Below, in pieces: positions 18,343 to 60,928 of a stretch of DNA of 64,000 nt. Origin of the DNA: Chromatiales bacterium (lineage in GTDB: Bacteria > Pseudomonadota > Gammaproteobacteria > SZUA-152); NCBI GenBank assembly GCA_026982555.1, contig JALSGT010000062.1, positions 2,610-66,609 on the forward strand, read 5' to 3'. A program made the translations under genes and the position numbers. Under the pieces are notes generated by a model, which did no database searches, had not been told where the DNA came from, and saw only the letters and a program-made list of their open reading frames with translations. Position 1 is the stretch's first letter. The number at the start of each line of letters is the position of its first letter.

Positions 18343-19094
18343 TGTCCCGGAAAGACTCTTCAAAAAGCAGTAATTTTGAACGCGGCTGGAAAAAACGCTT
18401 TGGCCAATATGCTGATGCACGAGATGACGATGCGGGTATTGCGGGTTGGACGCAAAGCGGACTGGAGACTCGTGTTCGTAACTTTGATGCTTTGTGGGCA
18501 CCAACCACTGAGGCGCGTTCATGGCTGGATGCCGGCTGTGGTGCGGGCACCTACTCCCGGTTTATGGCGGGCAAGGGAAAGCAGGTTATTGGGCTGGATT
18601 ATTGTTTTCCTGCTGTGAAAAAGGCATTAAGCCGAAGTTCTGATGGCGTGGGGTGGGGGGTTGCGGATGTCACACGATTACCCATCGCAAATGGAAGCTT
18701 TGATGGCGCCATATGTTTTGGTGTTACTCAGGCATTATCAACGTCGAACGACGTGTCCCGGGAGCTGGCCGCCGCAGTGAAACCTGGCGGAGAAATATGG
18801 ATCGACGCGCTGAACAGTGCCTGCCTGCCACATCTTATTGGTCGATTGAAACGGAAACTTTTGCAGCGTGATATGCATTTGCGTTATGAGTCGCCACGGC
18901 AGCTTCGTCGTGCCATGGAAGATGCAGGGATTGTGAAACTAAAACGCTACTGGATTCCGATTTTGCCTTACCGTTTTTGTCGTTATCAATGGTTGTTTGA
19001 AACCCGGGTGATGCGCTGGTTATTGCATTCAGTGCCGGTACTCGGCGCACTCTTAAGTCATGGGTTTGTGATAAAAGGATACCGGCAGCAATGA
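18342..19094 (+). CDS. Class I SAM-dependent methyltransferase
   Basis: Motif I LDAGCGAGTYS; post-I GLDY; motif II FDGAICFGV. The start overlaps the upstream stop by 1 nt. Confidence 0.8.
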   Translation: MSRKDSSKSSNFERGWKKRFGQYADARDDDAGIAGWTQSGLETRVRNFDALWAPTTEARSWLDAGCGAGTYSRFMAGKGKQVIGLDYCFPAVKKALSRSSDGVGWGVADVTRLPIANGSFDGAICFGVTQALSTSNDVSRELAAAVKPGGEIWIDALNSACLPHLIGRLKRKLLQRDMHLRYESPRQLRRAMEDAGIVKLKRYWIPILPYRFCRYQWLFETRVMRWLLHSVPVLGALLSHGFVIKGYRQQ

Positions 19095-27021: not shown

Positions 27022-27028
27022 GTTGTGC

Positions 27029-40668: not shown

Positions 40669-41430
40669 ATGGCTTCTTCTTACAGGCTGCTTTGCCAAAT
40701 ATTGTTTACCAGTATTGTTCTTTTTATGAGCAGCCAGCTTTGGGCTGAGTCACCTCATGTTTCTTATGATAAATCAACAGATACGATTTCTATCGTGGCA
40801 ACGGATGCATCGTACAAAGCAATAATGGCACGTATTGCGACGCTGAGCGGTGTTGAAATTCTTATGGACCCCAAAGCTGAACATAATATTACTATCGAGG
40901 TGAGTGATTTGCCTCTCGAAACGGCGCTGAAGCAACTGAGCCGTCAAACCAGTTTTGTGCTTATTCATGATATTCCTGAAACGGATGTGAATGAATCCCA
41001 GGAGAAATCAGTTCAGCCTGTACTGGTTCGTATGCGCATACTGCCGGAAGGTGAGTTTACTACGGATGCGATATACCCTGTTTTGGCCCCTGGGGGTGAA
41101 GCTTTTATTCGAGAAAAAAATCGTTACTTAGCACCTGCCCAGCAGGTTGACATTTTTAATCATGCCCAAAGGCGTTGGGAAGCCCGGCTGAAAGCAATGT
41201 CGCCGGAAAAACGGGAAAAACTTCTGGATATCGCACAAGAAAAACGTGAACAAATGGCCCAGAATCGTGCTGAACAGGCGCAAAGAAAAAAAGAACTTGC
41301 AGAAAAGCGCGAAGCTTATAAAAAACGACGTGATGCCCGGCTTGAGGAATTAAAATTAATGGACCCGGAACGATATGAACTCCGAATGAAACGGCGAATG
41401 GAAAGGCAGCAGGGCGTTAACAGCGAGTAA
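40669..41430 (+). CDS. Secreted protein with an STN/secretin-N-like module and a K/R/E-rich coiled-coil tail
   Basis: Sec signal MASSYRLLCQILFTSIVLFMSSQLWA|ES. ISIVATDASYKAIMARIATLSGVEILMDPKAEHNITIEVSDLPLETALKQLSR follows the STN pattern. C-terminal RRWEARLKAMSPEKREKLLDIAQEKREQMAQNRAEQAQRKKELAEKREAYKKRRDARLEEL. Confidence 0.6.
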   Translation: MASSYRLLCQILFTSIVLFMSSQLWAESPHVSYDKSTDTISIVATDASYKAIMARIATLSGVEILMDPKAEHNITIEVSDLPLETALKQLSRQTSFVLIHDIPETDVNESQEKSVQPVLVRMRILPEGEFTTDAIYPVLAPGGEAFIREKNRYLAPAQQVDIFNHAQRRWEARLKAMSPEKREKLLDIAQEKREQMAQNRAEQAQRKKELAEKREAYKKRRDARLEELKLMDPERYELRMKRRMERQQGVNSE

Positions 41431-46200: not shown

Positions 46201-49200
46201 CACTGAGCTGGATAACGGATGAACCTGCTGACAGTCAGGTTATGTACGGCACGGCACCCGGGACGTATGAACTGGGTACCGTATCGAGCGCGACACTGAC
46301 ACAGAACCACAGTATTACCCTGACGGGACTGACTCTCGGCACTGTGTATTACTACCAGGTGAGTAGCAGTGATGCGGACAACAATACTGGTAGCAGCGTT
46401 GATCTTAATTTCCTTGCGGAAGATCTGACAGCACCGACAATCAGCGATGTTCAAATTGTGAGAGTGGATAGCAGTGCGACCATCAGTTGGGTCACCAATG
46501 AACCTGCCGACAGTATGCTCGACTATGGCGAGACCACTGCCTATGAGCTGGGTACGGTTTCGAGTGCTGCAGGTACCAGTCACTCTGTTGTGCTTAACGG
46601 ATTGACGCCAGGTGTCATGTATTATTTCCAGCTTACGGCGACCGATAGCAGCAATAACAGCGGCAGTTTATCGAATCAGGCATTTTTAATGTTTGGGCCA
46701 CAATCAGATGACTTTAATGCCGCAACACTGGATGCCCGCTGGATCACGGTAGACCCGCTGGGTGATAACAGTGTTGCATTGACGGGCAGTCAGCTTGAGT
46801 TGAATGTTACCGGCGGTCAGCCGCACGATGTGTGGACTTCGGGCAACGATGCCTTGCGTTTAATGCAAACAGTGGTAGATCAGGACTTTGTGGTGGAAGT
46901 AAAGTTTGATTCTCTGCCAACTCAGCGATATCAGATACAAGGCATTCTGGTTGAGCAGGACAATGGTAATTTCCTGCGTTTTGATTATCTGAGTGATGGC
47001 ACGGACCTGCGGATATTTTCGGCCAGTTTTGCCAATGGAGTGCCGACAGCGCAAATAAATAATATTGTGTCGTTGGGTGTACCTCTGTATTTACGTGTGG
47101 AACGAGTGAGTGATACCTGGACACTGTCTCACAGTGAGGATGGTGCGAACTGGACAGTGGCTGGAAGCTATGTACACAGTCTGCAAGTGAATACTATCGG
47201 TGTGTTTGCGGGTAACACTGGCGGGAGTGGTTCCCCGGCCTACACCGCACTGGTGGACTCTTTTGTGACGAATGCGGTGGTACCTGTCCCGGATACGACT
47301 GCGCCACTGATTGATAATGTTATGGTGGATCGTGCGGGTGAGGAAGCAACGTTGAGCTGGACAACGGATGAACCTGCTGACAGTCAGGTCATGTATGGCA
47401 CGGCACCGGGGACATATGAACTGGGTACCGTATCGAGTGCGGCGTTAACACAAAACCATAGCATTACCTTGACGGGGCTGATCCCCGGCACCGTGTATTA
47501 CTACCAGCTGAGCAGTCGTGATGCGAACAACAACACCGGCAGCAGTGCCGATCTTAATTTCCTGGCGGAAGACCTGGTGCCGCCGACGATCAGTGATGTT
47601 CAGGTTACGAGAGCTGACAGCAGTGCAACCATCAGCTGGATCACAAACGAACCCGCCAGTAGTGTGCTTGAGTATGGCGAGACTAATGCCTACGAGCTGG
47701 GCTCAGTTTCGAGTGGCAGCACAGGTACCAGTCACTCTGTTGTGCTGAGTGGGTTAACGTCTGATGTTATGTATTATTTCCAGCTCACGGCGACTGATGG
47801 CAACAATAATAGCAACAGTCTGTCGAATCAGACATTTATGATGTCCGGGGTACAATCGGATGACTTTAACACGACGATATTGGATTCCCGCTGGACCACG
47901 ATAGACCCGCTGGGCGATAACAGTGTTGCATTAACGGGCAGTCAGCTTGAGCTGAGTGTCGCGGGTGGTCAGCCGCATGATGTGTGGATCTCGGGCAACA
48001 ATGCTTTGCGTTTAATGCAAACCGTGGTGGACCAGGATTTTGTGGCGGAAGTGAAGTTTGATTCTCTGCCGACCCAGCGATATCAGATACAAGGCATTCT
48101 GGTTGAGCAGGACAATGGTAATTTCCTGCGCTTTGATTATATTAGTGACGGCACGGACCTGCGGATATTTTCGGCCAGCTTTGTTGATGGTGTACCTACG
48201 TCACGGGTTTACGATGTTGTGTCACCGGGTCTGCCACTGTATTTACGTGTGGAGCGGGTGGGGGACACCTGGACGCTGTCGTATAGCGGGGACGCTGTGA
48301 ACTGGACGATAGCTGTCAGTTATGTACACAGCCTGCAAGTGAATGCCATCGGCGTGTTTGCAGGTAACACCGGAGGGAGTGGTTCTCCTGCTTACACGGC
48401 ACTGGTGGATTATTTTCTTACGAATGCCACAGCCTTTGTTCTGGATACGATTCCACCAGTGATCGGCGATATTATGGTGGACAGTGTGGGCGAAGAAGCA
48501 ACACTGAGCTGGACAACGAATGAACCGGCAAACAGTCAGGTCATGTACGGCACGGCACCGGGGACATATGAACTGGGTACCGTATCAAGTGCGGCGTTAA
48601 CACAAAATCACAGCATTACCCTGACGGGACTGACCCCCGGTACCGTGTATTACTACCAGCTGAGCAGCAGTGATGCAGACAACAACACCGGTAGTAGTGC
48701 CGATCTTAATTTCCTTGTGGAAGACCTGACGGCACCGGTGATCAGTAATGTTCAAGTCGTGAGAACGGCGGCCAGTGTGACCATCAGCTGGGTCACCAAT
48801 GAATCCGCCAGTAGTGTGCTTGAGTATGGCGAGACTAATGCCTACGAGCTGGGCTCAGTTTCGAGTGGCAGCACAGGCACCAGTCACTCTGTTGTACTGA
48901 GTGGGCTAACGCCTGACGTTGTGTACTATTTACAGATCACGGCAACTGACAACAGCAATAACAGCAGTTTAGTGAATCAGACGTTTTTAATATCGGACTC
49001 ACAATCGGATGATTTTAACACCACAATATTGGATGCCCGCTGGACCGTGGTGGATCCGCTGGGTGATGGCAGTGTTGGTCTGACGGGCAGCCAGCTTGAA
49101 CTGAATGTCCCCGGTGGTCAGTCTCACGATGCATGGACCGCAGGTAACGATACATTACGTTTAATGCAAAATGTCGAGGACCAGGATTTTGTGGCGGAAG

Positions 49201-49589
49201 TGAAGTTTGACTCCCTGCCAACCCGGCGATATCAGATACAAGGCATTCTGGTTGAGCAGGATAATGGTAACTTCCTGCGTTTTGATTATATTAGTGACGG
49301 CACGAGCCTGCGGATATTTTCGGCCAGTTTTGTGGATGGAGTACCCACGTCACGGGTTTACGATGTTGTGTCGTTGGACGCACCGTTGTATCTGCGTGTG
49401 GAGCGGGTGGGTGATACCTGGACATTGTCGCACAGTGGGGATGGTGTGAGCTGGACGGTGGCCGTGAGTTATGTGCATAGCCTGCAGGTGAATGCCATTG
49501 GTGTATTTGCCGGTAACACATGGGGCGCTGGTTCACCTGCCCACACAGCACTGGTAGACTATTTTACGACGGATGCAGTTGCGCAGTAA
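43281..49589 (+). CDS. Giant secreted multidomain protein (2102 aa): 5 ConA-like lectin/glucanase-type modules, 1 divergent jelly-roll region and about 8 FN3-like modules
   Basis: Signal peptide ...IVALFLLISVSTAQA|MS. Recurring roughly 200-aa module SDDF..(L)D.RW..VDP.GD ... HD.W ... RL.Q ... DF..EVKFDS ... YQIQGILVEQD..NFLRFDY ... LRIFSA ... LYLRV.R.GD.W ... S.DG..W ... FAGN ... YTALVDYF. Recurring FN3-like module (A)TISWVTNEPA.S ... YG ... YELG.VSS ... HS(I/V).L.GL.P..VYY(Y/F)Q(L/V). No C-terminal PEP-CTERM, LPXTG or T9SS-like tag is visible. Confidence 0.85.
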   Translation: MVVRLDRSRLYCGAIVALFLLISVSTAQAMSFTSDDFSSSSLDASLWTVVDPRGDSTLQLNGTQLTISVPDGLSHDLWETDQNAVRVLQNIDDTDFEIEIKFESNLSQRFQVQGLFVEQDDQNFLRFDFYYDGAVLRVFAASFIAGIPTIQHEAIITNGSPLYLRVQRAGDQWTQFYSYDGTNWNQGAAFSHPLLVTRAGPFAGNAGSPAPAFTAVVDYAFNTASPIIFEDANDPLDTMPPSISDIAIQEGPTRARVSWSTDEPTIGAVEYGTTASFELGQVATVSGGQQFDVLLDNLLPDTTYYFRITSEDANGNTRQSEASQFVTATDAVPPGPLIDVWYGPNQRFGNLGTPQRWVNIVGKVTDPNGVKSLSYRVNGQPARQLSMGPDENRLHSLGDFNAEINAVGPDAELNVGLNTVEITAVDNLDYSTVEVVTVEFSNNTVWSLPYAVDWSSVTQPWDAVQIVDGLWDIQGSEARPLELGYDRLIAIGDMSWTDYEITVPFTVHGLEPGYVYAGPSFSPGIGVLLRWSGHFDWNGAQPNTGWWSFGGFGWYRWRQPSAGGERFQIMGNDGSIIADRAESNFPFGVPHVLKMRVETPPNEGSIYSLKMWEQAQPEPAGWDLVSQELPTDPQSGSLLLVAHHVDATFGNVTIVPAGDTTGPTNSNIQVTSSETVATISWVTNEPAAVSLAYGVTSNYELGTVSDPALNTSHSVELTGLSSATAYQFQLTATDETGNSSSSVNRIFATSGVIPPGPQSDYFNAATLDARWTTVDPLNDNNVTLTGTQVALNIVGGPSHDVWASGNDTLRLMQDVLDQDFMAEVKFDSLPTQQYQIQGILVEQDNDNFLRFDYFSDGTDLRIFSASFVNGVPTVRVDDVVSLSAPMYLRVVRVSDTWILLYSGDGVSWTAAGSYMHSLQMNTMGIFAGNAQAGNAPAYTALVDYFLTDVEAPIPDTTPPLIDNIVVDSAGEEATLSWITDEPADSQVMYGTAPGTYELGTVSSATLTQNHSITLTGLTLGTVYYYQVSSSDADNNTGSSVDLNFLAEDLTAPTISDVQIVRVDSSATISWVTNEPADSMLDYGETTAYELGTVSSAAGTSHSVVLNGLTPGVMYYFQLTATDSSNNSGSLSNQAFLMFGPQSDDFNAATLDARWITVDPLGDNSVALTGSQLELNVTGGQPHDVWTSGNDALRLMQTVVDQDFVVEVKFDSLPTQRYQIQGILVEQDNGNFLRFDYLSDGTDLRIFSASFANGVPTAQINNIVSLGVPLYLRVERVSDTWTLSHSEDGANWTVAGSYVHSLQVNTIGVFAGNTGGSGSPAYTALVDSFVTNAVVPVPDTTAPLIDNVMVDRAGEEATLSWTTDEPADSQVMYGTAPGTYELGTVSSAALTQNHSITLTGLIPGTVYYYQLSSRDANNNTGSSADLNFLAEDLVPPTISDVQVTRADSSATISWITNEPASSVLEYGETNAYELGSVSSGSTGTSHSVVLSGLTSDVMYYFQLTATDGNNNSNSLSNQTFMMSGVQSDDFNTTILDSRWTTIDPLGDNSVALTGSQLELSVAGGQPHDVWISGNNALRLMQTVVDQDFVAEVKFDSLPTQRYQIQGILVEQDNGNFLRFDYISDGTDLRIFSASFVDGVPTSRVYDVVSPGLPLYLRVERVGDTWTLSYSGDAVNWTIAVSYVHSLQVNAIGVFAGNTGGSGSPAYTALVDYFLTNATAFVLDTIPPVIGDIMVDSVGEEATLSWTTNEPANSQVMYGTAPGTYELGTVSSAALTQNHSITLTGLTPGTVYYYQLSSSDADNNTGSSADLNFLVEDLTAPVISNVQVVRTAASVTISWVTNESASSVLEYGETNAYELGSVSSGSTGTSHSVVLSGLTPDVVYYLQITATDNSNNSSLVNQTFLISDSQSDDFNTTILDARWTVVDPLGDGSVGLTGSQLELNVPGGQSHDAWTAGNDTLRLMQNVEDQDFVAEVKFDSLPTRRYQIQGILVEQDNGNFLRFDYISDGTSLRIFSASFVDGVPTSRVYDVVSLDAPLYLRVERVGDTWTLSHSGDGVSWTVAVSYVHSLQVNAIGVFAGNTWGAGSPAHTALVDYFTTDAVAQ
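45552..49589 (+). repeat. In-frame tandem DNA repeat, period 1149-1152 bp, about 3.5 copies, inside the giant gene
   Basis: Unit starts caatc(g/a)gat(t/g)a(t/c)tttaa at 45552, 46701, 47853 and 49002. Long stretches are near-identical between copies, for example 47670-47760 vs 48823-48913 and 46901-47040 vs 48060-48200, which differ at only scattered positions. Confidence 0.88.
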
Positions 49590-49712: not shown

Positions 49713-50639
49713 TTATTTGCGGGCTCGTTTGCGCCTTATTTCATTGACGAGTTCTTTCCATAATTCCTTCCGCAGCCAAAAAAGCTCTTTACCGACCGAT
49801 TTTAGTAAATCAAGCTTATGCTGAAAGGACAGCGGTGAACGAATAATGCTGGAAGCAATTTTTTGGAGACAGGTCCATGATTGCAACGAAATGCGGTTTT
49901 TGGTTGCCGGGTCGTAGAATTCCTGTTTACTTGCTGTTTCAGCTTCGGGCCATGAAAAAGATTGGTCATGGCGTCTCATTGATAGCAGGCAGTCAGGCAC
50001 CTCACAGAATTTGCCGAGCAGTATCAGTTCGATGAGCAGTGTCGTATCTGCACCAATGTAATTGCCGATCAAGCGCGTTTTTCGCAGAGCATCTGATTGA
50101 ATAAGACCGAATATATACGTTCCCTTCCATCCAGAGACACGCTTGCCTGAGCGCTGGAACATTTCCATTAATGCATGGTATCGCATGCGTGGATCATTTG
50201 AGGTCAGGCTCAGATAGTCATCCAGTACCAGACCTTTGATTGGTGTTCCCTGGTCGTCAATACCATCTCCCCTGGAAAACGCCAACACGGCTTCAGGATC
50301 ACTCCGGCCAGCTTTCAGGCAACTTTCCAGATACGTTGGCTCGCAAATATCATCAGCAGCTGCCCATTTGAAATAGTCTCCTGTTGCTAATGCAAATGTG
50401 TTGTTAAAATTCCATGCGGCACCCCGGTTATGGTCATAACGGTAGTATCGAATACGTTCATCATTAGTCGCGTATTTTTCACAGATTTCACCTGTGCGAT
50501 CTGTTGAGCCATTGTCAGATATGATGAGTTCAAAATCCGGGAAGGTTTGGCCTAGAATGGAGTCTATTGCTGCGCTGAGGAATTTTTCACCGTTGTAAAC
50601 GGGAATGCCGATACTGATTAGCGGTTTTTTTGTCATCAA
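49713..50639 (-). CDS. Family 2 glycosyltransferase
   Basis: ISIGIPVYNGEKFLSAAIDSILGQTFPDFELIISDNGSTD, a classic GT-A/GT2 N-terminus. Confidence 0.9.
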   Translation of the reverse strand: MMTKKPLISIGIPVYNGEKFLSAAIDSILGQTFPDFELIISDNGSTDRTGEICEKYATNDERIRYYRYDHNRGAAWNFNNTFALATGDYFKWAAADDICEPTYLESCLKAGRSDPEAVLAFSRGDGIDDQGTPIKGLVLDDYLSLTSNDPRMRYHALMEMFQRSGKRVSGWKGTYIFGLIQSDALRKTRLIGNYIGADTTLLIELILLGKFCEVPDCLLSMRRHDQSFSWPEAETASKQEFYDPATKNRISLQSWTCLQKIASSIIRSPLSFQHKLDLLKSVGKELFWLRKELWKELVNEIRRKRARK

Positions 50640-50673: not shown

Positions 50674-52158
50674 TTAGTTATTAGATTTTAGTTTTTCTTT
50701 TATAATATCAAAAAGTTTGATTTCCATGGAGGTTTCCGGATGTGTTGTACATATGCGCAGCAATAAAAAGAGACTGGCAAAATAGCTTGCGGCGCCAACA
50801 GCAGATAACGATATCAGTTTAATCAGGTGCGCCAGAATTGATGAAGTCTCACCCCATAGCGTCAGTGCAGATAAAACGATTGCGGCCATAAATAAAGAAG
50901 AAACAACAGGCCGCCACAGCAGGCTTATGACTTGTAACAGGTTGAGGTTCAGTTTGCGTGACAGGATGATGAAATTGATTGGCATCGACAGAAAAGCGAT
51001 TATGGCAATGGCCCAGGCTGCCATCAGGACGCCACTGGAGGCCAGTGCCCATATGATGGCAGGATAAATGAGGAAAACAGTAAATATTGATAAATAGGTA
51101 ATTATTTTAGGAATTCCCAATGCCAGGTATATTGCCCCCGTATTTGCTTGCAGCGCACGGAATATTCCTGTTATAGCAAGAGCCTGGATAAGGGGAATGC
51201 TATCTAACCACTTTTGTCCCAGAAAAACCTGAACAAGAGGGTCGGCCAAAAGAGCGATACCTGTGCCAATGGGTACGGTAAAAAGTGCAACCAGAGAGAA
51301 AACATCAAGAAAGCCTTTTCTCAACATCGCGATATCATTAGACATCTTGGCATATCCGGGAAATACCGCCCGGGTAACAGGGAATACCAGTTCAGATGTG
51401 GGAAGATTAGATATCTCATAGGATACGCTGTACATCCCAAGTGCTTGTGTTCCCGCCATTTTGCCGATAACAAAATCAATGCCGCGAATATTGACGAAAA
51501 TCAGAATATTGTTTATCAGCATCCACTTTGAAAAATGAAAAAGCTCCGAGGCTTTGGCAAGAGAAAAACGTGGTCGATAGGGGTGCATCATATAGCTTAT
51601 TATCAGGCCAACAAGCTTTGATGTGATGATGCCGGCAACAAGTGCCCAATAGTTTTTGAAGGTGAAGGCAAGGGATATGGTGACAAGGAAAGATACAATT
51701 TTTTGTATGAGCAGAAAATTAAACTCTTTCCTGAAGTTAAGTTCCTTACGAAATGCAACGATACCGATGTTTTCAAAACCCTGAATCAGTGTCGCCAGGG
51801 CAAGAAAGTGCATTATCCCTGCGAGATTCGGCTCCTCAAAGAAAGCCGCCGCCGGATTCGCAAGCAAGAAAAGGGCAGTAGCGGCAAAAATGGCGTACAA
51901 CACATTGAATGTCCATGCCGTATCGTAGTGCTGCCGGGAAGCCTTTTGGTTCTGGATCAGCGCAAGGTCAAAACTGAATGCGCCCATAATTTCCAGTGCG
52001 GCAAAAATGGCCATTGCGATGGCGACAAGCCCGAAATCCTCGGGTACAAGCAGGCGGGCCAGTATTACCGTACTAATCAGGCCAAGGCCACGCTGGGAAA
52101 ATTTAAAAAGCACCATCCACCCGGCACCCTTGGCCATTTTTTTATTTAAGTCCTCCAT
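50674..52158 (-). CDS. Wzx-like polysaccharide flippase (MOP/PST family, Polysacc_synt)
   Basis: KGAGWMVLFKFSQRGLGLISTVILARLLVPEDFGLVA N-terminus typical of PST flippases. About 14 TM helices, 494 aa. Confidence 0.8.
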   Translation of the reverse strand: MEDLNKKMAKGAGWMVLFKFSQRGLGLISTVILARLLVPEDFGLVAIAMAIFAALEIMGAFSFDLALIQNQKASRQHYDTAWTFNVLYAIFAATALFLLANPAAAFFEEPNLAGIMHFLALATLIQGFENIGIVAFRKELNFRKEFNFLLIQKIVSFLVTISLAFTFKNYWALVAGIITSKLVGLIISYMMHPYRPRFSLAKASELFHFSKWMLINNILIFVNIRGIDFVIGKMAGTQALGMYSVSYEISNLPTSELVFPVTRAVFPGYAKMSNDIAMLRKGFLDVFSLVALFTVPIGTGIALLADPLVQVFLGQKWLDSIPLIQALAITGIFRALQANTGAIYLALGIPKIITYLSIFTVFLIYPAIIWALASSGVLMAAWAIAIIAFLSMPINFIILSRKLNLNLLQVISLLWRPVVSSLFMAAIVLSALTLWGETSSILAHLIKLISLSAVGAASYFASLFLLLRICTTHPETSMEIKLFDIIKEKLKSNN

Positions 52159-52957: not shown

Positions 52958-53728
52958 ATGAAAGTAGCGTTTCTGGCAGGAGGATACGGTACTCGCCTGG
53001 CGGAGGAGACCGAAGTACGCCCGAAGCCGATGGTTGAGATTGGCGGGCATCCCATTCTTTGGCACATCATGATGCATTACCATCGCTATGGGTATAACGA
53101 ATTTGTTGTTGCACTGGGTTACAAGGGCGATTACATCAAGCGCTGGATGAAGGATTTTGCTTCATTAAACGGCCATTTGACGGTGAAAACAGCGACCGGC
53201 AAGGTGACTTCTCACGGTGCAAACAACCCGGACTGGACCGTGGATCTGGTGGATACCGGGTTAACCACACTCACCGGCGGACGTATCAAGCGCCTGCAAC
53301 CCTGGGTGGGGGAAGAGACGTTCATGCTGACCTGGGGAGATGGTGTTTCTGACGTGGACCTCGACAAACTGCTTGCATTCCACAAATCTCATGGCAAGTT
53401 GGCGACAATGACGGCGGTGCGTCCACCTGCACGTTACGGCCACCTGGAATTCGACGGCGACAAAATCATGAGCTTTACGGAAAAACCACAAACCAGCGAA
53501 GGCTGGATCAATGGTGCTTTTTTTGTACTGGAGCCGGGTATTTTTGATTATATTTCCGGTGACCAGATCATGTGGGAGGAGGAGCCGCTTGAGAATCTTG
53601 CAAAAGATGGTCAATTGATGGCCTATCGTCATGATTCTTTTTGGCAGTGCATGGATACATTGCGCGAAAAACATCTTTTGGAACGTTTGTGGCAGGCAGG
53701 GTCTCCGCCATGGAAAACATGGGAATAA
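52958..53728 (+). CDS. rfbF: Glucose-1-phosphate cytidylyltransferase
   Basis: MKVAFLAGGYGTRLAEETEVRPKPMVEIGGHPILWHIMMHY. 257 aa from the ATG at 52958, which has GGAG 6 nt upstream. The C-terminal WQCMDTLREK motif is typical of RfbF. Confidence 0.9.
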   Translation: MKVAFLAGGYGTRLAEETEVRPKPMVEIGGHPILWHIMMHYHRYGYNEFVVALGYKGDYIKRWMKDFASLNGHLTVKTATGKVTSHGANNPDWTVDLVDTGLTTLTGGRIKRLQPWVGEETFMLTWGDGVSDVDLDKLLAFHKSHGKLATMTAVRPPARYGHLEFDGDKIMSFTEKPQTSEGWINGAFFVLEPGIFDYISGDQIMWEEEPLENLAKDGQLMAYRHDSFWQCMDTLREKHLLERLWQAGSPPWKTWE

Positions 53729-53734
53729 TGTGAA

Positions 53735-54757
53735 ATGAAAGTATTAGTAACAGGACATTCGGGGTATATCGGGACTGTATTGGTTCCCATGTTGTTGGAC
53801 CACGGACATGATGTTTCCGGGCTGGATAACGGCTGGTTTGAACACTGCGTGTTCACGGGTGAAGTGGTTCAGATACCCGGCATTAAAAAAGATGTGCGTG
53901 ACGTGGAAAAAGCGGACCTGGAAGGCTTTGATGCGATTATTCATCTGGCAGGTCTATCCAATGACCCGCTGGGTGATTATCGGCCTGGCCTGACCGAAGA
54001 GATTAACGACAAAGCCTCCGTCAGGATCGCCACGCTGGCGAAAGAAGTGGGGGTTGAGCGATTTATATTCGCCTCATCATGCAGCAACTATGGCGCTTCG
54101 GGTGATCAGTTTTTAACCGAAGATGCTGCCTTTAATCCGGTGACCCCTTACGGCGTGTCCAAAGTCAAAGTGGAAGAAGGGTTGGATAAACTGGCCGACG
54201 ACAGCTTTTGTCCCGTTTATTTACGCGCATCCACCGCCTATGGCATGTCACCGATTATTCGTTTCGATCTCGTGCTTAACAATTTGACGGCATGGGCTTT
54301 CACAACGGGTCAAGTATATCTGAAGAGTGACGGCACACCGTGGCGTCCCATTGTGCATGTGGAGGATATCTGTCGTGCCTATGTGGCAGCTCTGCATGCA
54401 CCACGGGATGTGGTTTTCAATCGTGGCTTCAATGTAGGCACTACCACGGAAAACTATCAGATCCGTGAGCTTGCGGAAATCGTGCAGGATGTCGTGCCCA
54501 ATTGCCGTGTTGAGTTTGCCGACGATGCCGGGCCGGACAAACGTTGTTATCGGGTTGACTGTAATCGTATTGCCACTGAACTCCATGAGTTCAAACCGCA
54601 ATGGACTGCACACCAGGGTGTTGTGGAACTGTACGAAACCTACAAGAAAGTGGGTTTGACGCTCGACGAATTCGAGGGAGAGAAATTCAAACGTATCGCA
54701 CATCTTCAGAAATTAGTAAAAGATAAAAAACTGGATGAAACGTTGCGCTGGGCCTGA
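53735..54757 (+). CDS. Extended SDR, NAD-dependent sugar epimerase/dehydratase/reductase family
   Basis: VLVTGHSGYIGT (GxxGxxG), SSCSNYG, PYGVSK (YxxxK). I did not recognise it as a canonical CDP-glucose 4,6-dehydratase. Confidence 0.82.
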   Translation: MKVLVTGHSGYIGTVLVPMLLDHGHDVSGLDNGWFEHCVFTGEVVQIPGIKKDVRDVEKADLEGFDAIIHLAGLSNDPLGDYRPGLTEEINDKASVRIATLAKEVGVERFIFASSCSNYGASGDQFLTEDAAFNPVTPYGVSKVKVEEGLDKLADDSFCPVYLRASTAYGMSPIIRFDLVLNNLTAWAFTTGQVYLKSDGTPWRPIVHVEDICRAYVAALHAPRDVVFNRGFNVGTTTENYQIRELAEIVQDVVPNCRVEFADDAGPDKRCYRVDCNRIATELHEFKPQWTAHQGVVELYETYKKVGLTLDEFEGEKFKRIAHLQKLVKDKKLDETLRWA

Positions 54758-54872
54758 TTCCTGATCAAGGAAAGACACTTTCAGGGTCGGCGTAAATTCA
54801 CGTCAACTGTACGGCCACGGCGTATTGCCCGGTGATGCCGTCACGAACACTTCAACAGGTGAAATTAAGGAT

Positions 54873-56102
54873 ATGAGTGCTGAAATAACTGCTTGCAGAT
54901 CATGCAACAAACCCGGTCTTGAAACCTTTCTGGATTTGGGGCGAACGCCACTGGCAGACCGTATACTGACCCCCGCTCAACTGGAAGAGCATGAGCCAAT
55001 GTATCCGTTGAAAGTGGCTTTTTGTCCCGGCTGCGGACTGATGCAAATTACGGAAACGGTGGAGCCTGATGAACTGTTCTGTGATGACTATCCGTACTTT
55101 TCGTCTTTTTCCGACTACCTGCTTGAGCATTCAAAAGAAAATGTTCTGGATGTCATTGAACGGCGGAAACTGGGAGCCGATAGCTTTGTGGTTGAGCTTG
55201 CCAGCAATGATGGTTACTTGCTGAAAAATTATGTTGAACACGGCATCCCCGTTTTGGGTATCGACCCGGCAGACGGGCCCGCTGCCGCTGCGGAAAAAAT
55301 CGGTGTGCCGACCCGCAATACCTTTTTTACCAAAGCGCTTGCGCAGGAACTGGTTCAGCAAGGGTCGCAGGCTGACGTGATACATGGTAACAATGTACTG
55401 GCACATGTTGCAGACACCAATGGCTTTGTTTCCGGCATGGCAGACCTGCTCAAAGAGGATGGTGTTATCGTGATTGAAGCGCCATACGCCAAGGATTTGA
55501 TTGACCATTGTGAATTCGACACCATTTACCACGAGCATCTCTGCTATTTTTCCGTGACGGCATTAAATAATTTGTTTCGCCAACACGGCCTGTATCTGAA
55601 TGAAATTAAGCAATTGTCTGTCCATGGCGGCTCCCTGCGGCTTTATGTGGAAAAACAGGAAAACATGGGTTCGTCAGTGAAAGATTTACTGGCGCTGGAG
55701 CAAGCAGAAAAAGTTGATAAAATTGATTTTTACCGGGATTTTTCCACTCGGGTTGAAGCGGTAAAAGCCGCATTATTGGCGTTGCTGACTGATCTGAAAT
55801 CCCAGGGGAAAAGTATCGCTGCCTACGGGGCTGCGGCGAAGGGCAGCACACTGATCAACTACATGGGGATTGGCACAGACCTGATTGATTTTGTGGTGGA
55901 TAGAAACATACACAAACAGGGTCGTTTCATGCCGGGGCAACATATCCCGATTTTTGCACCTGAAAAAATAATGGAAGAACGCCCCGATTATGTACTTATT
56001 TTACCCTGGAATGTGACCGACGAAATTCTCAAGCAACAGCAGGAATATCGTGATCAGGGTGGAAAATTTATTGTGCCTATTCCTGAACCAAAAATTATCT
56101 AA
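54873..56102 (+). CDS. Zinc-ribbon SAM-dependent methyltransferase, NDP-hexose C-methyltransferase-like (paralogue 1)
   Basis: N-terminal CRSCN ... CPGCG four-Cys ribbon, a SAM-binding region VVELASNDGYLL, and a C-terminal Rossmann-like domain (IAAYGAAAKGSTLINY). The start is uncertain (ATG 54873 vs TTG 54825). Confidence 0.72.
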   Translation: MSAEITACRSCNKPGLETFLDLGRTPLADRILTPAQLEEHEPMYPLKVAFCPGCGLMQITETVEPDELFCDDYPYFSSFSDYLLEHSKENVLDVIERRKLGADSFVVELASNDGYLLKNYVEHGIPVLGIDPADGPAAAAEKIGVPTRNTFFTKALAQELVQQGSQADVIHGNNVLAHVADTNGFVSGMADLLKEDGVIVIEAPYAKDLIDHCEFDTIYHEHLCYFSVTALNNLFRQHGLYLNEIKQLSVHGGSLRLYVEKQENMGSSVKDLLALEQAEKVDKIDFYRDFSTRVEAVKAALLALLTDLKSQGKSIAAYGAAAKGSTLINYMGIGTDLIDFVVDRNIHKQGRFMPGQHIPIFAPEKIMEERPDYVLILPWNVTDEILKQQQEYRDQGGKFIVPIPEPKII

Positions 56103-56197
56103 GCAGATATCGTTAAGTCATCACAATTGGCCTGAATATAGCCACTGTGATACAGCGCGAAAAATGTATAAAACACTATTTTAGAGATAGCAAAACG

Positions 56198-57385
56198 ATG
56201 AATACAGAACACACATGCCCCAGCTGTAACACCGATAATATGCAAGTTTTTTATGAACAAAAATCGGTACCTTCAAATAGTTGCATACTGTTAGACAGTG
56301 AAAAAGCGGCCATTGAATATCCGCGTGGAGACATAGAGCTTTGTTTTTGTCCCGAATGCGGTTTTATGTCCAATATGGCATTCGACGCGAAACTGACCGA
56401 ATATTCCGGGCGCTATGAAGAAACACAGGGCTTTTCAGGCACGTTTAACAAATTTCATCACGCATTGGCGGAGCGACTCGTTGAGCGTTACGACCTGCAT
56501 GACAAGGACGTTCTGGAAATTGGCTGTGGCAAAGGTGAATTTATCACCATGCTGAGCGAGCTGGGAAACAACCGGGGGGTCGGGTTTGATCCCGGCTATC
56601 GTGCTGATCGTAATGCCAGTGAAAGCGCGCAAAAGAATGTCACATTCATTACGGATTTTTATTCAGAAAAATACAGTGATTATCAAGCTGATTTTTTATG
56701 TTGCAAGATGACACTGGAGCATATTCACCCAACCTCCGACTTCATTAATACCGTGCGCCGATCCATTGGTGACCGGGAAGACACCATTGTGTTTTTCCAG
56801 ATACCGGAATCAACACGCATTCTGCGCGATTGTGCATTTGAAGATATTTATTACGAGCATTGCTCCTATTTTTCCCCCGGGTCATTGGCAAGATTGTTTC
56901 GCGCAAAAGGGTTTGATGTAATCAATATCGAAACGGAATACGATGATCAATACCTGACGATTGAAGCCCGGCCAAGTAATGGCAGCCCGCAAAGCGCGGT
57001 GCTTGAACAGGAAAACGATCTTGAATCATTGAAAGAGCTGGTGGCGACCTTTCCTCAACGGCTTAAAGAAAAATTATCCGGGTGGCAAAAAGAACTGGAT
57101 GACCTGCATGCAAATGGCAGTAAGGTGGTGTTGTGGGGATCAGGGTCAAAGGGCGTTTCATTTTTGGCGACGCTGGATGCAGGCGACAACATTGAATACG
57201 TGGTGGACATCAATCCGCACAGACAGGGCTATTACATGTCAGGCACCGGACAGGAAATCGTCTCCCCGGATTTTTTGAAAGAGTATCAGCCGGATGTGGT
57301 GATCGTCATGAATGCCATTTATTGTGATGAAATTGGGGAAGACCTGAAAAAGCTGGGGCTGTCTCCAAAGATCATGGCAGTTTGA
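56198..57385 (+). CDS. Zinc-ribbon SAM-dependent methyltransferase, C-methyltransferase-like (paralogue 2)
   Basis: CPSCN ... CPECG; VLEIGCGKGEF motif I; C-terminal VVLWGSGSKGVSFL. Clearly paralogous to 57414..58616. Confidence 0.75.
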   Translation: MNTEHTCPSCNTDNMQVFYEQKSVPSNSCILLDSEKAAIEYPRGDIELCFCPECGFMSNMAFDAKLTEYSGRYEETQGFSGTFNKFHHALAERLVERYDLHDKDVLEIGCGKGEFITMLSELGNNRGVGFDPGYRADRNASESAQKNVTFITDFYSEKYSDYQADFLCCKMTLEHIHPTSDFINTVRRSIGDREDTIVFFQIPESTRILRDCAFEDIYYEHCSYFSPGSLARLFRAKGFDVINIETEYDDQYLTIEARPSNGSPQSAVLEQENDLESLKELVATFPQRLKEKLSGWQKELDDLHANGSKVVLWGSGSKGVSFLATLDAGDNIEYVVDINPHRQGYYMSGTGQEIVSPDFLKEYQPDVVIVMNAIYCDEIGEDLKKLGLSPKIMAV

Positions 57386-57413
57386 TGGCAATGTCAGCAG
57401 GAGAAGAATAGCA

Positions 57414-58616
57414 ATGGCTGATACACACGAAGAAAAGTGTCCTGTTTGTGACTCATCGAATATCGATGCCTCCATTGATATTCCTGACGTTCCCATTTAT
57501 TGCAATGTGCTCTGGCCTTCGCGCGAGGTGGCTTTGGACGCAGCAAAAGGGGATATCTCGGTAGGTTACTGCCGTGAGTGCGGGCATGTATTCAACACAT
57601 CTTTTGATCCTTCGCTGATGTCTTACACAGAGGATTATGAAAACTCACTTCACTATTCTCCCACTTTTAACGAATATGCAGAGTCTCTTGCATCAAGACT
57701 GCTCGAAAAATATCAGCTCAACAACAAAAGCATCATCGAAATTGGTTGTGGCAAGGGTGACTTCCTTTCCATGCTGTGTGCGAAAGGTGAAAATCGCGGC
57801 TATGGTTTTGATAAAAGCTTTGAAACTGATCGAGTGGCATCAGACACGCACAAGAACATCACGTTTATCCAGGATTTCTACGGCGAAAAATATGCCGATT
57901 ATGATGCCGACCTGATTGTCTGCCGACACGTACTTGAGCATATCCAGCATCCGCAACGTTTCCTTCAAGACATCCGGCAGGTCATTGGTGACCGCACAGA
58001 CACGGTGGTGTATTTTGAAGTGCCCAATGCGTTATACACACTGAAAGACATGGGTATCTGGGATCTTATTTATGAGCACTGCGGATACTTTAATGTTAAC
58101 TCGTTATCCCGGGCATTTGAACTTGCCGGGTTTGACGTTTGTGAAACGGGCGAATCTTTTGGCGGGCAATTTATTTACCTGGAAGCAAAGCCGCGTACCC
58201 GTGAAAATACGGTAGATAAAAACAGTACGATAGCACTGCAAAAACGGGAGCTGGAAGACCTGGCTACCTGCGTGACGGCATTTGAAAGTAACTATAAGGC
58301 CAAAGTGGACGGGTGGCGTAAAAAACTGGACGCACTGCAAAAGAATAACGAAAGCGCAGTGATCTGGGGCGGAGGATCAAAAGGCATTACGTTCCTGAAT
58401 GTCTTGCAGACGGAACAGGTCATTGCTCATATTGTAGACCTGAACCCCCATAAACAGGGATTGTTTGCGCCGGGAACAGGACAGGAAGTCATCGGGCCGG
58501 AAGCCTTGAAAGCATTGCGTCCGGAACATGTCATCATCATGAATGGTATTTATCAGGATGAAATTACGGGCATGCTGGCTGATCTTGGAATTACCGCAGA
58601 AATCAGTTGTGTTTGA
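57414..58616 (+). CDS. Zinc-ribbon SAM-dependent methyltransferase, C-methyltransferase-like (paralogue 3)
   Basis: CPVCD ... CRECG; IIEIGCGKGDF motif I; C-terminal AVIWGGGSKGITFL. Confidence 0.75.
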   Translation: MADTHEEKCPVCDSSNIDASIDIPDVPIYCNVLWPSREVALDAAKGDISVGYCRECGHVFNTSFDPSLMSYTEDYENSLHYSPTFNEYAESLASRLLEKYQLNNKSIIEIGCGKGDFLSMLCAKGENRGYGFDKSFETDRVASDTHKNITFIQDFYGEKYADYDADLIVCRHVLEHIQHPQRFLQDIRQVIGDRTDTVVYFEVPNALYTLKDMGIWDLIYEHCGYFNVNSLSRAFELAGFDVCETGESFGGQFIYLEAKPRTRENTVDKNSTIALQKRELEDLATCVTAFESNYKAKVDGWRKKLDALQKNNESAVIWGGGSKGITFLNVLQTEQVIAHIVDLNPHKQGLFAPGTGQEVIGPEALKALRPEHVIIMNGIYQDEITGMLADLGITAEISCV

Positions 58617-58619
58617 CCG

Positions 58620-59822
58620 GTGAAAAAAACAGACCTGCTTGTGATCGGTGGGGGCGTCATCGGTCTTAATATTGCCCTGGCCTTCCAGCGCCGCTATCCC
58701 CGACAAAAAGTGGTTTTGCTGGAAAAAGAAACACAGTTTGGTGCGCATGCCAGTGGCAGAAACAGTGGCGTATTGCACGCGGGCTTTTATTATACGGCAG
58801 ACAGCTTAAAAGCTCGTTTTACCCGGGAAGGAAACAAGCTGTTAACCGAGTATTGCGTGGAAAGAGGCTTGCGAATCAATCGCTGCGGTAAGCTGGTTGT
58901 CACACAAAATGAAGCAGAATTGGAAACGCTGGATGTGTTGTTGCAACGGGGGAAAGCCGGTGGAATAACGGTGCATGAACTCACCGAGCGTGAGGCCCAT
59001 GACATTGAACCCCGGGCAAAAACCTATCAAAGAGCACTTTTTTCACCCACAACCTCATCGGTTGATCCACTGGAAGTAGTGGAATCCATGGTGCAAGACG
59101 CAAAAGATATCGGTATTGAAATCCTTACCGGAACCGCCTATCTGGGACGAAAGGGGCAGGAAATTCGTACCACTCAGGGGAAAATTCTGGCGGGTTATGT
59201 CATTAATGCCGCTGGCTTATACGCGGACAAAGTTGCGCAGGATTTTGGGTTTTCGGAACACTACAGAATTATTCCTTTCAAGGGGCTTTATCTTTACAGT
59301 GATGAACCAGTTGGTTCGCTGCGCACGCATATCTACCCGGTTCCGGATCTTCGCAATCCTTTTTTGGGCGTACATTTCACCTTGACAGCGGATGGCCATG
59401 TGAAAGTAGGGCCAACAGCAATCCCGGCTTTTTGGCGGGAACATTATAATGGGTTTGAAAACTTCAGCGCATCAGAGGTTTTTGAAATTACGATGCGCGA
59501 ACTGGGCTTGATGCTGAACAACGATTTTGGTTTTCGCAAACTCGCTGTCACCGAAATGTCAAAATATTACAGACCGCGTATGGTGAAGCTGGCGTCCAAT
59601 CTTTTATCCGGTATGGATAAAAAAGCATACCGTCGGTGGGGGCGGCCCGGTATTCGTGCCCAGCTATTTGATTTGCGCAACAGGCGTTTAGAGCAGGATT
59701 TTTGTTTTGAAGGTGATCAGAACTCCTTTCACGTATTAAATGCTGTATCGCCTGCCTTTACCTGTTCGATTCCTTTTTGTGAATATCTGATTGATCAGGT
59801 TGCAATAAGTCGTTCACAATAA
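58620..59822 (+). CDS. FAD-dependent oxidoreductase, L-2-hydroxyglutarate oxidase (LhgO)-like DAO family
   Basis: GTG start. DLLVIGGGVIGLNIAL dinucleotide-binding motif, SGRNSGVLHAGFYY, and a C-terminal FHVLNAVSPAFTCS typical of LhgO-like proteins. Confidence 0.78.
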   Translation: MKKTDLLVIGGGVIGLNIALAFQRRYPRQKVVLLEKETQFGAHASGRNSGVLHAGFYYTADSLKARFTREGNKLLTEYCVERGLRINRCGKLVVTQNEAELETLDVLLQRGKAGGITVHELTEREAHDIEPRAKTYQRALFSPTTSSVDPLEVVESMVQDAKDIGIEILTGTAYLGRKGQEIRTTQGKILAGYVINAAGLYADKVAQDFGFSEHYRIIPFKGLYLYSDEPVGSLRTHIYPVPDLRNPFLGVHFTLTADGHVKVGPTAIPAFWREHYNGFENFSASEVFEITMRELGLMLNNDFGFRKLAVTEMSKYYRPRMVKLASNLLSGMDKKAYRRWGRPGIRAQLFDLRNRRLEQDFCFEGDQNSFHVLNAVSPAFTCSIPFCEYLIDQVAISRSQ

Positions 59823-59848: not shown

Positions 59849-60928
59849 TCAAAAGAATTGACGGACAATCAGATTTGCCGCCTGTTCAATGCCATCCGGG
59901 CGGGGTGGTGTGGGGGCTTTGCTTATGCATAATGTTTCAATGATGTTTACAATATTACCGGTTGCAAAATCATCCGGTTGTATTTCGATGCAGCGTCCAT
60001 GCAGTTTCAGCCAGTCAGTCAGGCAATCAACTTCCGGCCAGTTTTTTCGTTGCAAATACAATACCGGAATACCCAAGCAGGCGGCCTCCACAAAACTGCC
60101 GTATCCGGGTTTGGTGATCAGTGCATCACATGAAGCCAACACGTCAGCAAAGGGCATGTTGAGGCTTTCCAGGTCGAGGGTATCCGGGTGTTGTGAGTGC
60201 CAGGCTGTGGGTACGATAAAACGCACTCCGGGTTGTCGGGGCCAACTGTGGACAGGCAGATGTAAATCCATGCCGCCCAGTGAAAGCATGACGAGGCGTT
60301 GCCCCGGATGCAGACCGATCTGGCTGGCGATTTCAGTTTTCCGGTTTTCCCCAAGCTGTGCAACCGGACCGATGACTTGTGTGTTGTGTAAATCAGGCAT
60401 CGACATGGACGGTGTGAGCTGCAAAAAAACATGGGCACCCTGGTAAGCCGCCAAAATCTGTTGGAAAATGGTGTCTGCTTCTGGCCTGACATTGAGAAAA
60501 TAATGTTTATAAATATCGGCCCAGTTCAAAGAGCACATGGCAATGGACGGTATGTTGGCGCGTTTTGCGCCTGCCAGTGCGAGGTAGGGGACATTGGCCA
60601 GCAGCAGATCCGCATCAAGTGCGGATAGCTGTGAGGCTTCCGCAGAAACCTTGTCTTCCCAGTGTGTGTGAAAATCACGATAGGCTTCGGCGCTTTCATT
60701 TTCTGACACTTGCAAGGCACTTGCTTGTATCATTCCGATGTCTGTGTTGGTGGGCTGTATGTCGATATTCTGGCCGAACCGTTCAAGTAGTTTGTCTTTG
60801 GGCGCATTGCTGCGAATGGTCACGCGGAGGTTGGGTAATCGCTTTTGTAAAGCTCGAACGATAGGAGCCGTTTGGCCGATATGGCCAAAGCCGTGGGAAG
60901 ACAAAGCGACAACAAGGTGGCGGGTCAT
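59849..60928 (-). CDS. GT-B fold glycosyltransferase (GT1/GT28-like)
   Basis: N-terminal ALSSHGFGHIGQTAPIVRAL and C-terminal CDALITKPGYGSFVEAACLGIPVLYL resemble the MGT/Glyco_tran_28_C pattern. Confidence 0.55.
   Translation of the reverse strand: MTRHLVVALSSHGFGHIGQTAPIVRALQKRLPNLRVTIRSNAPKDKLLERFGQNIDIQPTNTDIGMIQASALQVSENESAEAYRDFHTHWEDKVSAEASQLSALDADLLLANVPYLALAGAKRANIPSIAMCSLNWADIYKHYFLNVRPEADTIFQQILAAYQGAHVFLQLTPSMSMPDLHNTQVIGPVAQLGENRKTEIASQIGLHPGQRLVMLSLGGMDLHLPVHSWPRQPGVRFIVPTAWHSQHPDTLDLESLNMPFADVLASCDALITKPGYGSFVEAACLGIPVLYLQRKNWPEVDCLTDWLKLHGRCIEIQPDDFATGNIVNIIETLCISKAPTPPRPDGIEQAANLIVRQFF

Follow-up and report, generated by a model that had tools for sequence, protein, structure and literature searches.

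A conserved CDP-hexose cassette with a Cj1427-like oxidoreductase, three TcaB9-like methyltransferases and, in some lineages, a predicted L-2-hydroxyglutarate oxidiser

The accepted source of C-branched sugars, to our knowledge, is a 4-keto-6-deoxy intermediate formed by a 4,6-dehydratase. The CDP-hexose cassette considered here, at positions 52958-59822 of a 64,000-nt stretch of DNA from an uncultured gammaproteobacterium (contig JALSGT010000062.1; the whole stretch is called the window, and all positions are given within it), raises the question of where its methyltransferases obtain a keto-sugar. It consists of six tightly packed genes on the + strand, namely rfbF (ddhA), an extended short-chain dehydrogenase/reductase (SDR), three methyltransferase genes (MT1, MT2 and MT3) and a gene for an FAD enzyme of the L-2-hydroxyglutarate (L-2-HG) oxidase type (LhgO), in the order given in a preliminary description of this DNA. 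That description had found no recognisable CDP-glucose 4,6-dehydratase (RfbG), and our searches bear this out: none is encoded in the 64-kb window, where, apart from the SDR, an epimerase/dehydratase domain is absent from every open reading frame (ORF) of at least 180 amino acids.

By analogy with Cj1427 of Campylobacter jejuni, we consider it likely that the SDR is a C4-dehydrogenase of the Cj1427 type and not a 4,6-dehydratase, and that it makes a 4-keto hexose that still carries its 6-hydroxyl group. The same analogy could account for the presence of a flavoenzyme of 2-hydroxyglutarate metabolism in the cassette.

The oxidoreductase and its nearest characterised relative

The first gene, rfbF (52958-53728, +), encodes a glucose-1-phosphate cytidylyltransferase that scores 345.2 bits on TIGR02623 (cut-off 300.25) over profile positions 1-255 of 255, and its ATG is preceded by GGAG 7 nt upstream. 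The SDR gene (53735-54757, +; 340 amino acids) begins 6 nt after rfbF. We fetched 80 genomic loci around SDR relatives, to which all counts below refer unless stated otherwise, and in 59 of them rfbF lies directly upstream of the SDR.

The SDR matches PF01370 at 1.6e-40 and has the features of an extended SDR: a GxxGxxG motif, an Asp at the end of beta-2, which points to a preference for NAD, and a Ser/Thr-Tyr-Lys triad. G7, G10, G13, D31, S115, Y139 and K143 are invariant in its family, S115 being Thr in Cj1427. On the dehydratase models as a whole, including those for dTDP-glucose and GDP-mannose, it reaches 18-44 bits where the cut-offs lie at 278-415; TIGR02622, the model for CDP-glucose 4,6-dehydratase, gives 23.2 bits (cut-off 278.45) over the N-terminal 30 residues only, and TIGR01181 gives 44 bits (cut-off 365). 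4,6-Dehydratases carry an Asp-Glu or Asp-Lys pair right after the catalytic Ser/Thr, which serves the deprotonation of C5 and the loss of water from C6. At the position of this acid/base pair the window protein has S114-S115-C116-S117, which is invariant in the aligned family members.

When sequences in the PDB were searched with phmmer, the nearest protein was Cj1427 (6vo6; E 3.6e-34), well ahead of the runner-up at 2.8e-18, and Cj1427 shares 57 of the 126 positions that are invariant in the SDR family. An AlphaFold model of the SDR (pLDDT 82) had 6vo8 and 6vo6, both Cj1427, as its top Foldseek matches, with 4-epimerases close behind. According to the literature (PMC10680097; PMC7949155), Cj1427 oxidises C4 of GDP-manno-heptose without deoxygenation and works by a ping-pong mechanism, in which tightly held NADH is re-oxidised by alpha-ketoglutarate, itself reduced to L-2-HG. 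The predicted likeness is thus one between two extended SDRs that hand a 4-keto sugar nucleotide, not deoxygenated at C6, to tailoring enzymes. The differences lie in the substrate, GDP-heptose for Cj1427 and CDP-hexose for the window SDR, in the enzymes that follow, C3/C5 epimerases in one case and methyltransferases in the other, and in the absence from the cassette of an NADPH-dependent C4-reductase like Cj1428. In the literature that we read, no L-2-HG oxidase is described as a partner of Cj1427.

All five core genes, rfbF-SDR-MT1-MT2-MT3, are present in 58 of the loci, with identical order and strand in 44. Clustering the ORFs of the 80 loci and annotating the recurrent ones revealed no conserved second reductase, epimerase or aminotransferase and no further oxidoreductase conserved in the cassettes; the recurrent neighbours are limited to PIG-L, GT2, GT4, FkbM, Bac_transf and FG-GAP proteins. 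One argument does not depend on the homology to Cj1427: enzymes of the MT1 type require a 4-keto group, and as the conserved core has no oxidoreductase besides the SDR, the ketone must come from the SDR. Because its nearest characterised relative is the C4-dehydrogenase Cj1427 and it has no dehydratase signatures, its product would probably retain the 6-hydroxyl group. The earlier suggestion that the SDR replaces RfbG therefore stands in so far as the SDR is the only source of a keto-sugar, and falls in so far as the protein is not dehydratase-like.

Three methyltransferases and a flavoenzyme

The genes for MT1 (54825-56102, +; probable ATG start at 54873), MT2 (56147-57385, +; probable ATG start at 56198) and MT3 (57414-58616, +) encode proteins of about 400 amino acids each, which had been described as three zinc-ribbon paralogues resembling C-methyltransferases. 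For MT1 this holds in every domain, with scores above the Pfam gathering scores for the zinc ribbon (PF08421, Methyltransf_13; 82 against 31 bits), the S-adenosylmethionine (SAM) domain (PF13489, Methyltransf_23; 63 against 27) and the C-terminal nucleotide-binding domain (PF08484, Methyltransf_14; 218 against 23.5). For MT2 and MT3 it holds in part. Both exceed the cut-offs for Methyltransf_23 (73 and 85 bits) and Methyltransf_14 (58 and 53 bits), while the ribbon model finds no match in MT2 and only 20 bits against 31 in MT3; even so, their CxxC...CxxC cysteines fall in register with those of the TcaB9 ribbon. In overall layout, with three domains and four ribbon cysteines, MT1 agrees fully with the characterised enzymes TylC3, TcaB9, KijD1 and MtmC, and MT2 and MT3 resemble them apart from the score of the ribbon.

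MT1 is an orthologue of the NDP-hexose 3-C-methyltransferases. Its PDB matches are 4rv9 (MtmC; E 8.8e-90) and 5t64 and 3ndi (about 1e-86), and it is 38% identical to MtmC, TcaB9 and KijD1, roughly as similar as these are to one another. MT2 and MT3 are divergent TcaB9-like proteins, the PDB match of MT3 being 5t64 at E 2.5e-17. We built a neighbour-joining tree from 160 methyltransferases of the fetched loci together with TcaB9, MtmC and KijD1, and it resolves three clean monophyletic groups: MT1, MT2 (53 members) and MT3 (52 members), with exactly one member of each in 40 loci. TcaB9, MtmC and KijD1 group with MT1. MT2 and MT3 fall outside the clade of solved enzymes in two new clades of their own, which differ in SAM motif I and end in a shorter C-terminus.

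MT2 and MT3 had been taken for clearly recent duplicates. With 42% identity between them (MT2 and MT1 share 26%) and separate orthologous groups across phyla, a recent duplication is ruled out, and on the evidence of this tree the pair stems from an ancient one. Since the three enzymes form separate conserved groups and MT3 is missing from some alphaproteobacterial and Thioalkalivibrio cassettes, the comparison indicates that they are not redundant and that MT3 is an optional extra step. A search with MT3 of 1.84 billion cluster representatives returned 1,780 proteins at E<=1e-30. Among them are two fusions of an MT2-type with an MT3-type protein (P0241 and P0242; 815 and 820 amino acids), one of which has lost the zinc-ribbon cysteines in both halves, and a fusion of an MT3-type protein with a glycosyltransferase of family GT2 (P0375; 748 amino acids), whose C-terminal half shares 37% identity, across its entire length, with the GT2 protein encoded at 49713-50639 of the window. 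These fusions suggest that MT2 and MT3 may cooperate, and that they may do so near the transfer step.

Mutagenesis of TcaB9 has addressed the catalytic residues Y76, H181, Y222, E224 and H225, in the numbering of the mutant structures 4E2W-4E33. MT1 keeps all five, and none of the three groups varies at H181, E224 or H225. Y222 is also invariant in the MT2 group, where position 76 is Tyr, Phe or Cys; the MT3 group keeps Y76 and has Ile at 222 with a Tyr at 223, a shift of one position. Both MT2 and MT3 have a canonical SAM motif I (EIGCGKG). With the catalytic His/Glu/His/Tyr set of TcaB9 kept in all three paralogues, multiple methylation of the sugar, as first proposed, seems the natural reading. 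Known C-methyltransferase pathways employ one such enzyme, which acts on a dTDP-4-keto-6-deoxy sugar in antibiotic synthesis, in contrast to the three enzymes, the CDP-sugar and the surface-glycan loci seen here. There is precedent for C-methylation of a CDP-4-keto sugar: vinelose of Azotobacter and cereose of Bacillus cereus are both C-methyl sugars from CDP-based pathways.

The last gene (58620-59822, +; 400 amino acids) has a GTG start 3 nt past the stop codon of MT3. The assignment of its product to the LhgO type was sound: it passes NF008726, though narrowly (308.4 bits, cut-off 299; profile positions 2-388 of 389), and matches Drosophila L-2-HG dehydrogenase (L2HGDH; PDB 8w75) at E 1.2e-50. 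In the Drosophila enzyme 2-oxoglutarate is contacted by S88, H92, Y289, L299, H302 and R393 (PMC10726252), and all six contacts are kept in the window protein, as S49, H53, Y239, L249, H252 and R346. They are kept, too, in all 11 cassette-linked copies, including those of the Bp3253 type that are only 34% identical. On NF008726 the copy at locus L014 reaches 320 bits and that of Thiocapsa 289, slightly under the cut-off. The window flavoenzyme should accordingly be a genuine L-2-HG oxidase or dehydrogenase, to judge from its conserved residues. It resembles LhgO/YgaF of E. coli, animal L2HGDH and Bordetella Bp3253 in the equivalog model and the six contacts. The known enzymes serve glutarate and lysine catabolism or metabolite repair, whereas the window gene is linked in an operon with a pathway for a nucleotide sugar.

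How often such a gene accompanies the cassette was counted in the 54 loci where both flanks could be judged, a gene being called linked when within 1 kb. A predicted L-2-HG oxidiser adjoins the cassette in nine of them, in six lineages with differing flanking genes and in three arrangements. LhgO follows MT3 in four lineages (the window clade, Thiocapsa, L010 and L012); at L014 it lies upstream, its end overlapping the start of rfbF in a start/stop overlap; and in Thioalkalivibrio (L063) the gene after MT2 belongs to a different subfamily, the Bp3253/3DME type (E 3e-119 to 3dme), its product being only 34% identical to the window LhgO with the six residues kept. A gene of this second type also lies about 5 kb upstream of the cassette in an Oricola locus. 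The co-product of Cj1427 is L-2-HG, the substrate of LhgO, and this could explain why the gene is there.

The proposed pathway and its competitors

The best explanation is that the cassette encodes a pathway, complete in itself, to a nucleotide sugar destined for a surface polysaccharide or for lipopolysaccharide (LPS). In the pathway that we propose, RfbF would make CDP-D-glucose, as its family assignment indicates, and the SDR, with tightly held NAD, would oxidise C4 to give CDP-4-keto-D-glucose with the 6-hydroxyl kept. MT1 would then methylate C3 through the 4-keto enolate, as expected from its orthology to TcaB9, MtmC and KijD1, and MT2 and MT3 would add one or two more methyl groups, for which C5 and/or an oxygen are the candidate sites. 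The NADH of the SDR would be discharged onto alpha-ketoglutarate to give L-2-HG, which LhgO would oxidise back to alpha-ketoglutarate, passing the electrons to O2 or a quinone; both steps follow from the biochemistry of Cj1427 taken together with the gene linkage. The product may be transferred by the GT2 protein and/or by a second glycosyltransferase (GTx, described below) and exported by Wzx. As for C4, one possibility is that the ketone persists in the product, a 4-ulose, and that the pathway is net oxidative. Alternatively, the methylated product may be reduced again by the SDR in its NADH form, or the reductase may be one of the methyltransferase paralogues, as with MtmC (PMC10269268), or an unlinked enzyme.

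The family identities and their conservation are observations; the C4-dehydrogenase chemistry, the coupling to alpha-ketoglutarate and the regiochemistry are what we infer from them. We judge the full model, with C4 oxidation of CDP-glucose, methylation by MT1-MT3 and regeneration of alpha-ketoglutarate by LhgO, to have an even chance of being right. The wider picture, of an undescribed sugar with a 6-hydroxyl group, up to three methyl groups (at C3 and probably at C5 and/or an oxygen) and perhaps a 4-oxo group, made for LPS or exopolysaccharide (EPS) in many phyla and in Sinorhizobium meliloti among others, with a dedicated alpha-ketoglutarate/L-2-HG shuttle from which LhgO passes electrons to the respiratory chain, is more tentative, and we would sooner expect some part of it to fail than all of it to hold.

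Several observations weigh against this model. The identity between the SDR and Cj1427 is only about 29%, and fold comparison had to be given up as a discriminator, as Foldseek fails to part Cj1427 from the 4-epimerases (9e-20 against 1e-18, nearly equal) and sequence comparison alone does so. All characterised TcaB9/TylC3-type enzymes that we know of use 4-keto-6-deoxy sugars. A C4 ketone has only two flanking carbons, and a third C-methylation, being without an obvious site, is unexplained. LhgO is absent from 45 of the 54 judgeable loci, and relatives at about 60% identity adjoin pgk and gap and other housekeeping or unrelated genes, which rules out a cassette-specific LhgO clade; by its sequence the linked gene is an ordinary LhgO. 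We found no SDR residues that part LhgO-linked from LhgO-free cassettes. Finally, the LhgO-type cases are all from Gammaproteobacteria or Pseudomonadota, and common descent, rather than independent events, may explain part of the linkage. To us the association reads as functional but dispensable, and the role of the linked gene could be filled just as well by a housekeeping LhgO encoded at another place in the genome.

The competitor that survives best has the SDR run a redox-neutral cycle, oxidising the sugar and then, in its NADH form, re-reducing the methylated product, with LhgO as a hitch-hiker or an L-2-HG repair enzyme. The lack of a separate reductase conserved in the 58 full cassettes fits this well, as do the many loci without LhgO, the unrelated settings of its relatives and the indistinguishable SDRs of the two kinds of cassette. 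It does not account for predicted L-2-HG oxidisers of two subfamilies standing directly beside the cassette in three arrangements, nor for the two coupled cases, with a 3-nt gap in the window and the start/stop overlap at L014; by our own estimate, chance adjacency of a gene present in one or two copies per genome would occur at about 1e-3 per locus. We regard this cycle as a serious but unlikely alternative.

Somewhat less probable in our view is that only MT1 is a C-methyltransferase, and that MT2 and/or MT3 O-methylate the sugar or the growing glycan, or that one of them is a C4-ketoreductase. MtmC, the best PDB match of MT1, switches between 3-C-methylation and 4-ketoreduction according to its cofactor and is a ketoreductase with NADPH bound (PMC10269268). 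The two alpha carbons offered by the C4 ketone would then suffice, the separation of the MT2/MT3 clade from all solved C-methyltransferases would be less surprising, and the MT3-GT2 fusion and the pairing of MT2 with GT2 would fit an action near the transfer step. Against this, both proteins keep motif I and the His/Glu/His set of TcaB9 as well as the nucleotide-binding Methyltransf_14 domain above its cut-off, and their sequences hold no evidence that separates O- from C-methylation.

That the SDR is an unconventional dehydratase, acting as a 4,6-dehydratase or as a 5,6-dehydratase like TunA to give a 6-deoxy-4-keto sugar beside an unrelated LhgO gene, seems to us improbable, more so than either of these. 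It would bring the methyltransferases into line with the 4-keto-6-deoxy substrates on which their characterised relatives act, TunA (3vps) is among the sequence and fold matches of the SDR, and most cassettes do without LhgO. The SDR, however, stays far below every dehydratase cut-off, has an invariant S-C-S with no acidic or Lys residue after the catalytic Ser, and is far nearer to Cj1427 than to any dehydratase, and a dehydratase would leave the recurrent, twice-independent linkage to L-2-HG oxidisers unexplained. We give little credence to an ordinary CDP-hexose 4- or 2-epimerase with methyltransferases whose substrate has no keto group: among the NCBIfam models the SDR scores best on GalE (105 bits, below the 262-bit cut-off) and 4-epimerases are close in Foldseek, but MT1 is orthologous, with its catalytic residues kept, to enzymes that need the 4-keto group for C3 deprotonation, no other enzyme of the conserved core could make the ketone, and CDP-tyvelose 2-epimerase is not among the PDB matches at E<=1e-10.

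Genomic setting, spread and the Sinorhizobium meliloti locus

As had been described, the cassette is framed by a flippase gene and glycosyltransferase genes, all on the - strand. The Wzx-type MOP flippase (50674-52158, -), transcribed divergently from the cassette, matches Polysacc_synt_3 at 3e-79 and reaches 211 bits on NF007773, under its 273-bit cut-off. The GT2 glycosyltransferase (49713-50639, -) matches PF00535 at 4e-31; its cluster is found in 32 of the loci, and GT2 is paired with MT2 in Mesorhizobium and Sinorhizobium. On the other side lies GTx (59849-60928, -), for which there was no Pfam match at cut-off (EryCIII-like_C, 18 bits against 31.7) and no PDB sequence match at E<=1. Its AlphaFold2 model (pLDDT 93) has the two-Rossmann GT-B fold of GT1-like enzymes, with SnogD, OleD, CalG and UDP-glycosyltransferases among its Foldseek matches (E 1e-11 to 1e-10, TM 0.5-0.66). 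GTx adjoins the cassette in 10 loci, and in L097 and L098 a gene of similar length, likewise without a Pfam family, follows MT3. A strict linkage was ruled out by a Thioploca homologue that lies elsewhere in the genome. We regard GTx as a candidate transferase for the modified sugar. Its family has about 1,200 homologues, mostly annotated as hypothetical.

A family scan of the ORFs places the cassette in an exosortase/PEP-CTERM-type EPS region. The first part of the window (1-28600) holds such a locus, with exosortase EpsH at 2260-3918, two AsnB/asparagine-synthase homologues, several GT4 glycosyltransferases, a Wzy-like protein with DUF5935, a heparinase II/III-like protein, a polysaccharide deacetylase and an MBOAT acyltransferase. 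Within this locus, 7378-9694 (+) lies in a stretch of low GC (0.42) and encodes a C-5 cytosine DNA methylase (PF00145, 2e-69) next to an ORF of 343 amino acids without a family; it may be an inserted restriction-modification module. Four ORFs, at 23303-24487, 25735-27171, 38426-40588 and 40669-41430 (394, 478, 720 and 253 amino acids), have no Pfam match at E<=1e-5. No Rfam match was found in the 49-64 kb part of the window, and scans for promoters and terminators gave sites no more numerous than in shuffled sequence.

Upstream of the cassette, 43281-49589 (+) encodes a protein of 2102 amino acids with ConA-like DUF1349/GH43_C2 domains and many Fn3/Pur_ac_phosph_N repeats. A protein of 2399 amino acids with the same Pfam domain set stands beside the cassette in L099, proteins that cluster with it adjoin the cassette in L003 and L007, and Laminin_G_3 proteins follow it in L097 and L098. 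The 43281-49589 protein might carry the cassette sugar as a glycosylation target or bind it as a lectin. The commonest extra neighbour besides GT2 is a PIG-L family de-N-acetylase, present in 15 of the 80 loci and in two metagenomic ones (L012, L038, L044-L064, L097, L099 and others). Further recurrent neighbours are an FkbM-type methyltransferase and an FG-GAP repeat protein.

Relatives of the SDR number in the thousands, the best 120 being 71-98% identical to it, and contigs of metagenome-assembled genomes match it at 97-99%. The cassette occurs in Thiocapsa, Thiococcus, Methylocaldum, Competibacter, Contendobacter, Thioalkalivibrio and many Mesorhizobium species. By higher groups, its hosts span the Gamma- and Alphaproteobacteria, Thermodesulfobacteriota, Verrucomicrobiales, Gemmatimonadota, Fibrobacteraceae, Chloroflexia and Krumholzibacteriia, and three more metagenomic loci have the identical arrangement. 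SDR orthologues across phyla are 66-77% identical, and by this distribution the cassette is widespread and old. A search of plasmid proteins located it on pSymB of S. meliloti and on Leisingera plasmids, where the three methyltransferase genes are annotated merely as 'class I SAM-dependent methyltransferase'; for pSymB, PLSDB gives no annotation.

In S. meliloti 1021, SMb21416 (ddhA), SMb21417 (ddhB), SMb21418 and their neighbours on pSymB are the same cassette. Identities to the window proteins are 68% for the SDR (SMb21417), 67% for MT1, 46% for MT2 and 43% for MT3; the MT2-GT2 pair is present, and there is no LhgO within 9 kb. In the record of this locus (L094; NC_003078.1, 692140-711303) the ddhA/rfbF match, at 17837-18609 of the locus, falls into two pieces that overlap and lie in different frames, with an rfbF ORF of only 174 amino acids, which suggests a frameshift or a sequence error in the record. 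Annotation assigns these genes to a 3,6-dideoxyhexose pathway and names ddhB a 'CDP-glucose 4,6-dehydratase'. As SMb21417 is 68% identical to the window SDR, its dehydratase name is very probably wrong. The RfbF-RfbG (ddhA-ddhB) pathways to 3,6-dideoxyhexoses, like those to vinelose and cereose, share with the cassette the start from CDP-glucose supplied by an RfbF orthologue; these canonical CDP-sugar pathways use a true 4,6-dehydratase and lead to 6-deoxy sugars, and it is this enzyme that is absent from the window.

Mutation of ddhB alters the LPS and causes defects in symbiosis (Campbell et al. 2003, cited by PMC5539429), and transposon mutants of ddhA and ddhB are reported to compete less well under polymyxin B (PMC5539429). 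Together with the CDP-glucose synthesis gene, these LPS-linked orthologues support the initial view of a CDP-hexose cassette for a surface glycan. The preliminary description had also considered that the same cassette might already be characterised, and this is so at the genetic level only: ddhA, ddhB and SMb21418 are known LPS genes, under a 3,6-dideoxyhexose annotation. Our literature search found no paper that defines the sugar product of the cassette and none that joins a C-methyltransferase sugar pathway with 2-hydroxyglutarate.

What we describe is an assembly of known kinds of enzyme into an undescribed pathway, more general than was held at first; new are the proposed Cj1427-type source of the keto-sugar, a possible reason for the presence of LhgO, the finding that MT2 and MT3 are ancient and occur in fusions, and the recognition that a ddh locus of S. 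meliloti, very probably mis-annotated, is the same cassette. The work on Cj1427 left the fate of L-2-HG and the cellular oxidant open, and the gene linkage offers an answer that can be tested; if true, it would be the first in vivo clue that alpha-ketoglutarate is the physiological oxidant of Cj1427-type dehydrogenases, and the first instance in which an LhgO is integral to the redox chemistry of a glycan pathway. The annotation that would be corrected is a long-standing one, and the ddhB gene of S. meliloti, with its known links to LPS, symbiosis and resistance to host peptides, provides a tractable model for the hypothesis. MT2 and MT3, as two new clades of the TcaB9 family, could widen the toolbox for sugar engineering through their regiochemistry. 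If the model is true, bacterial cell envelopes would contain non-deoxy branched or poly-methylated hexoses that are made by a C4-dehydrogenase route.

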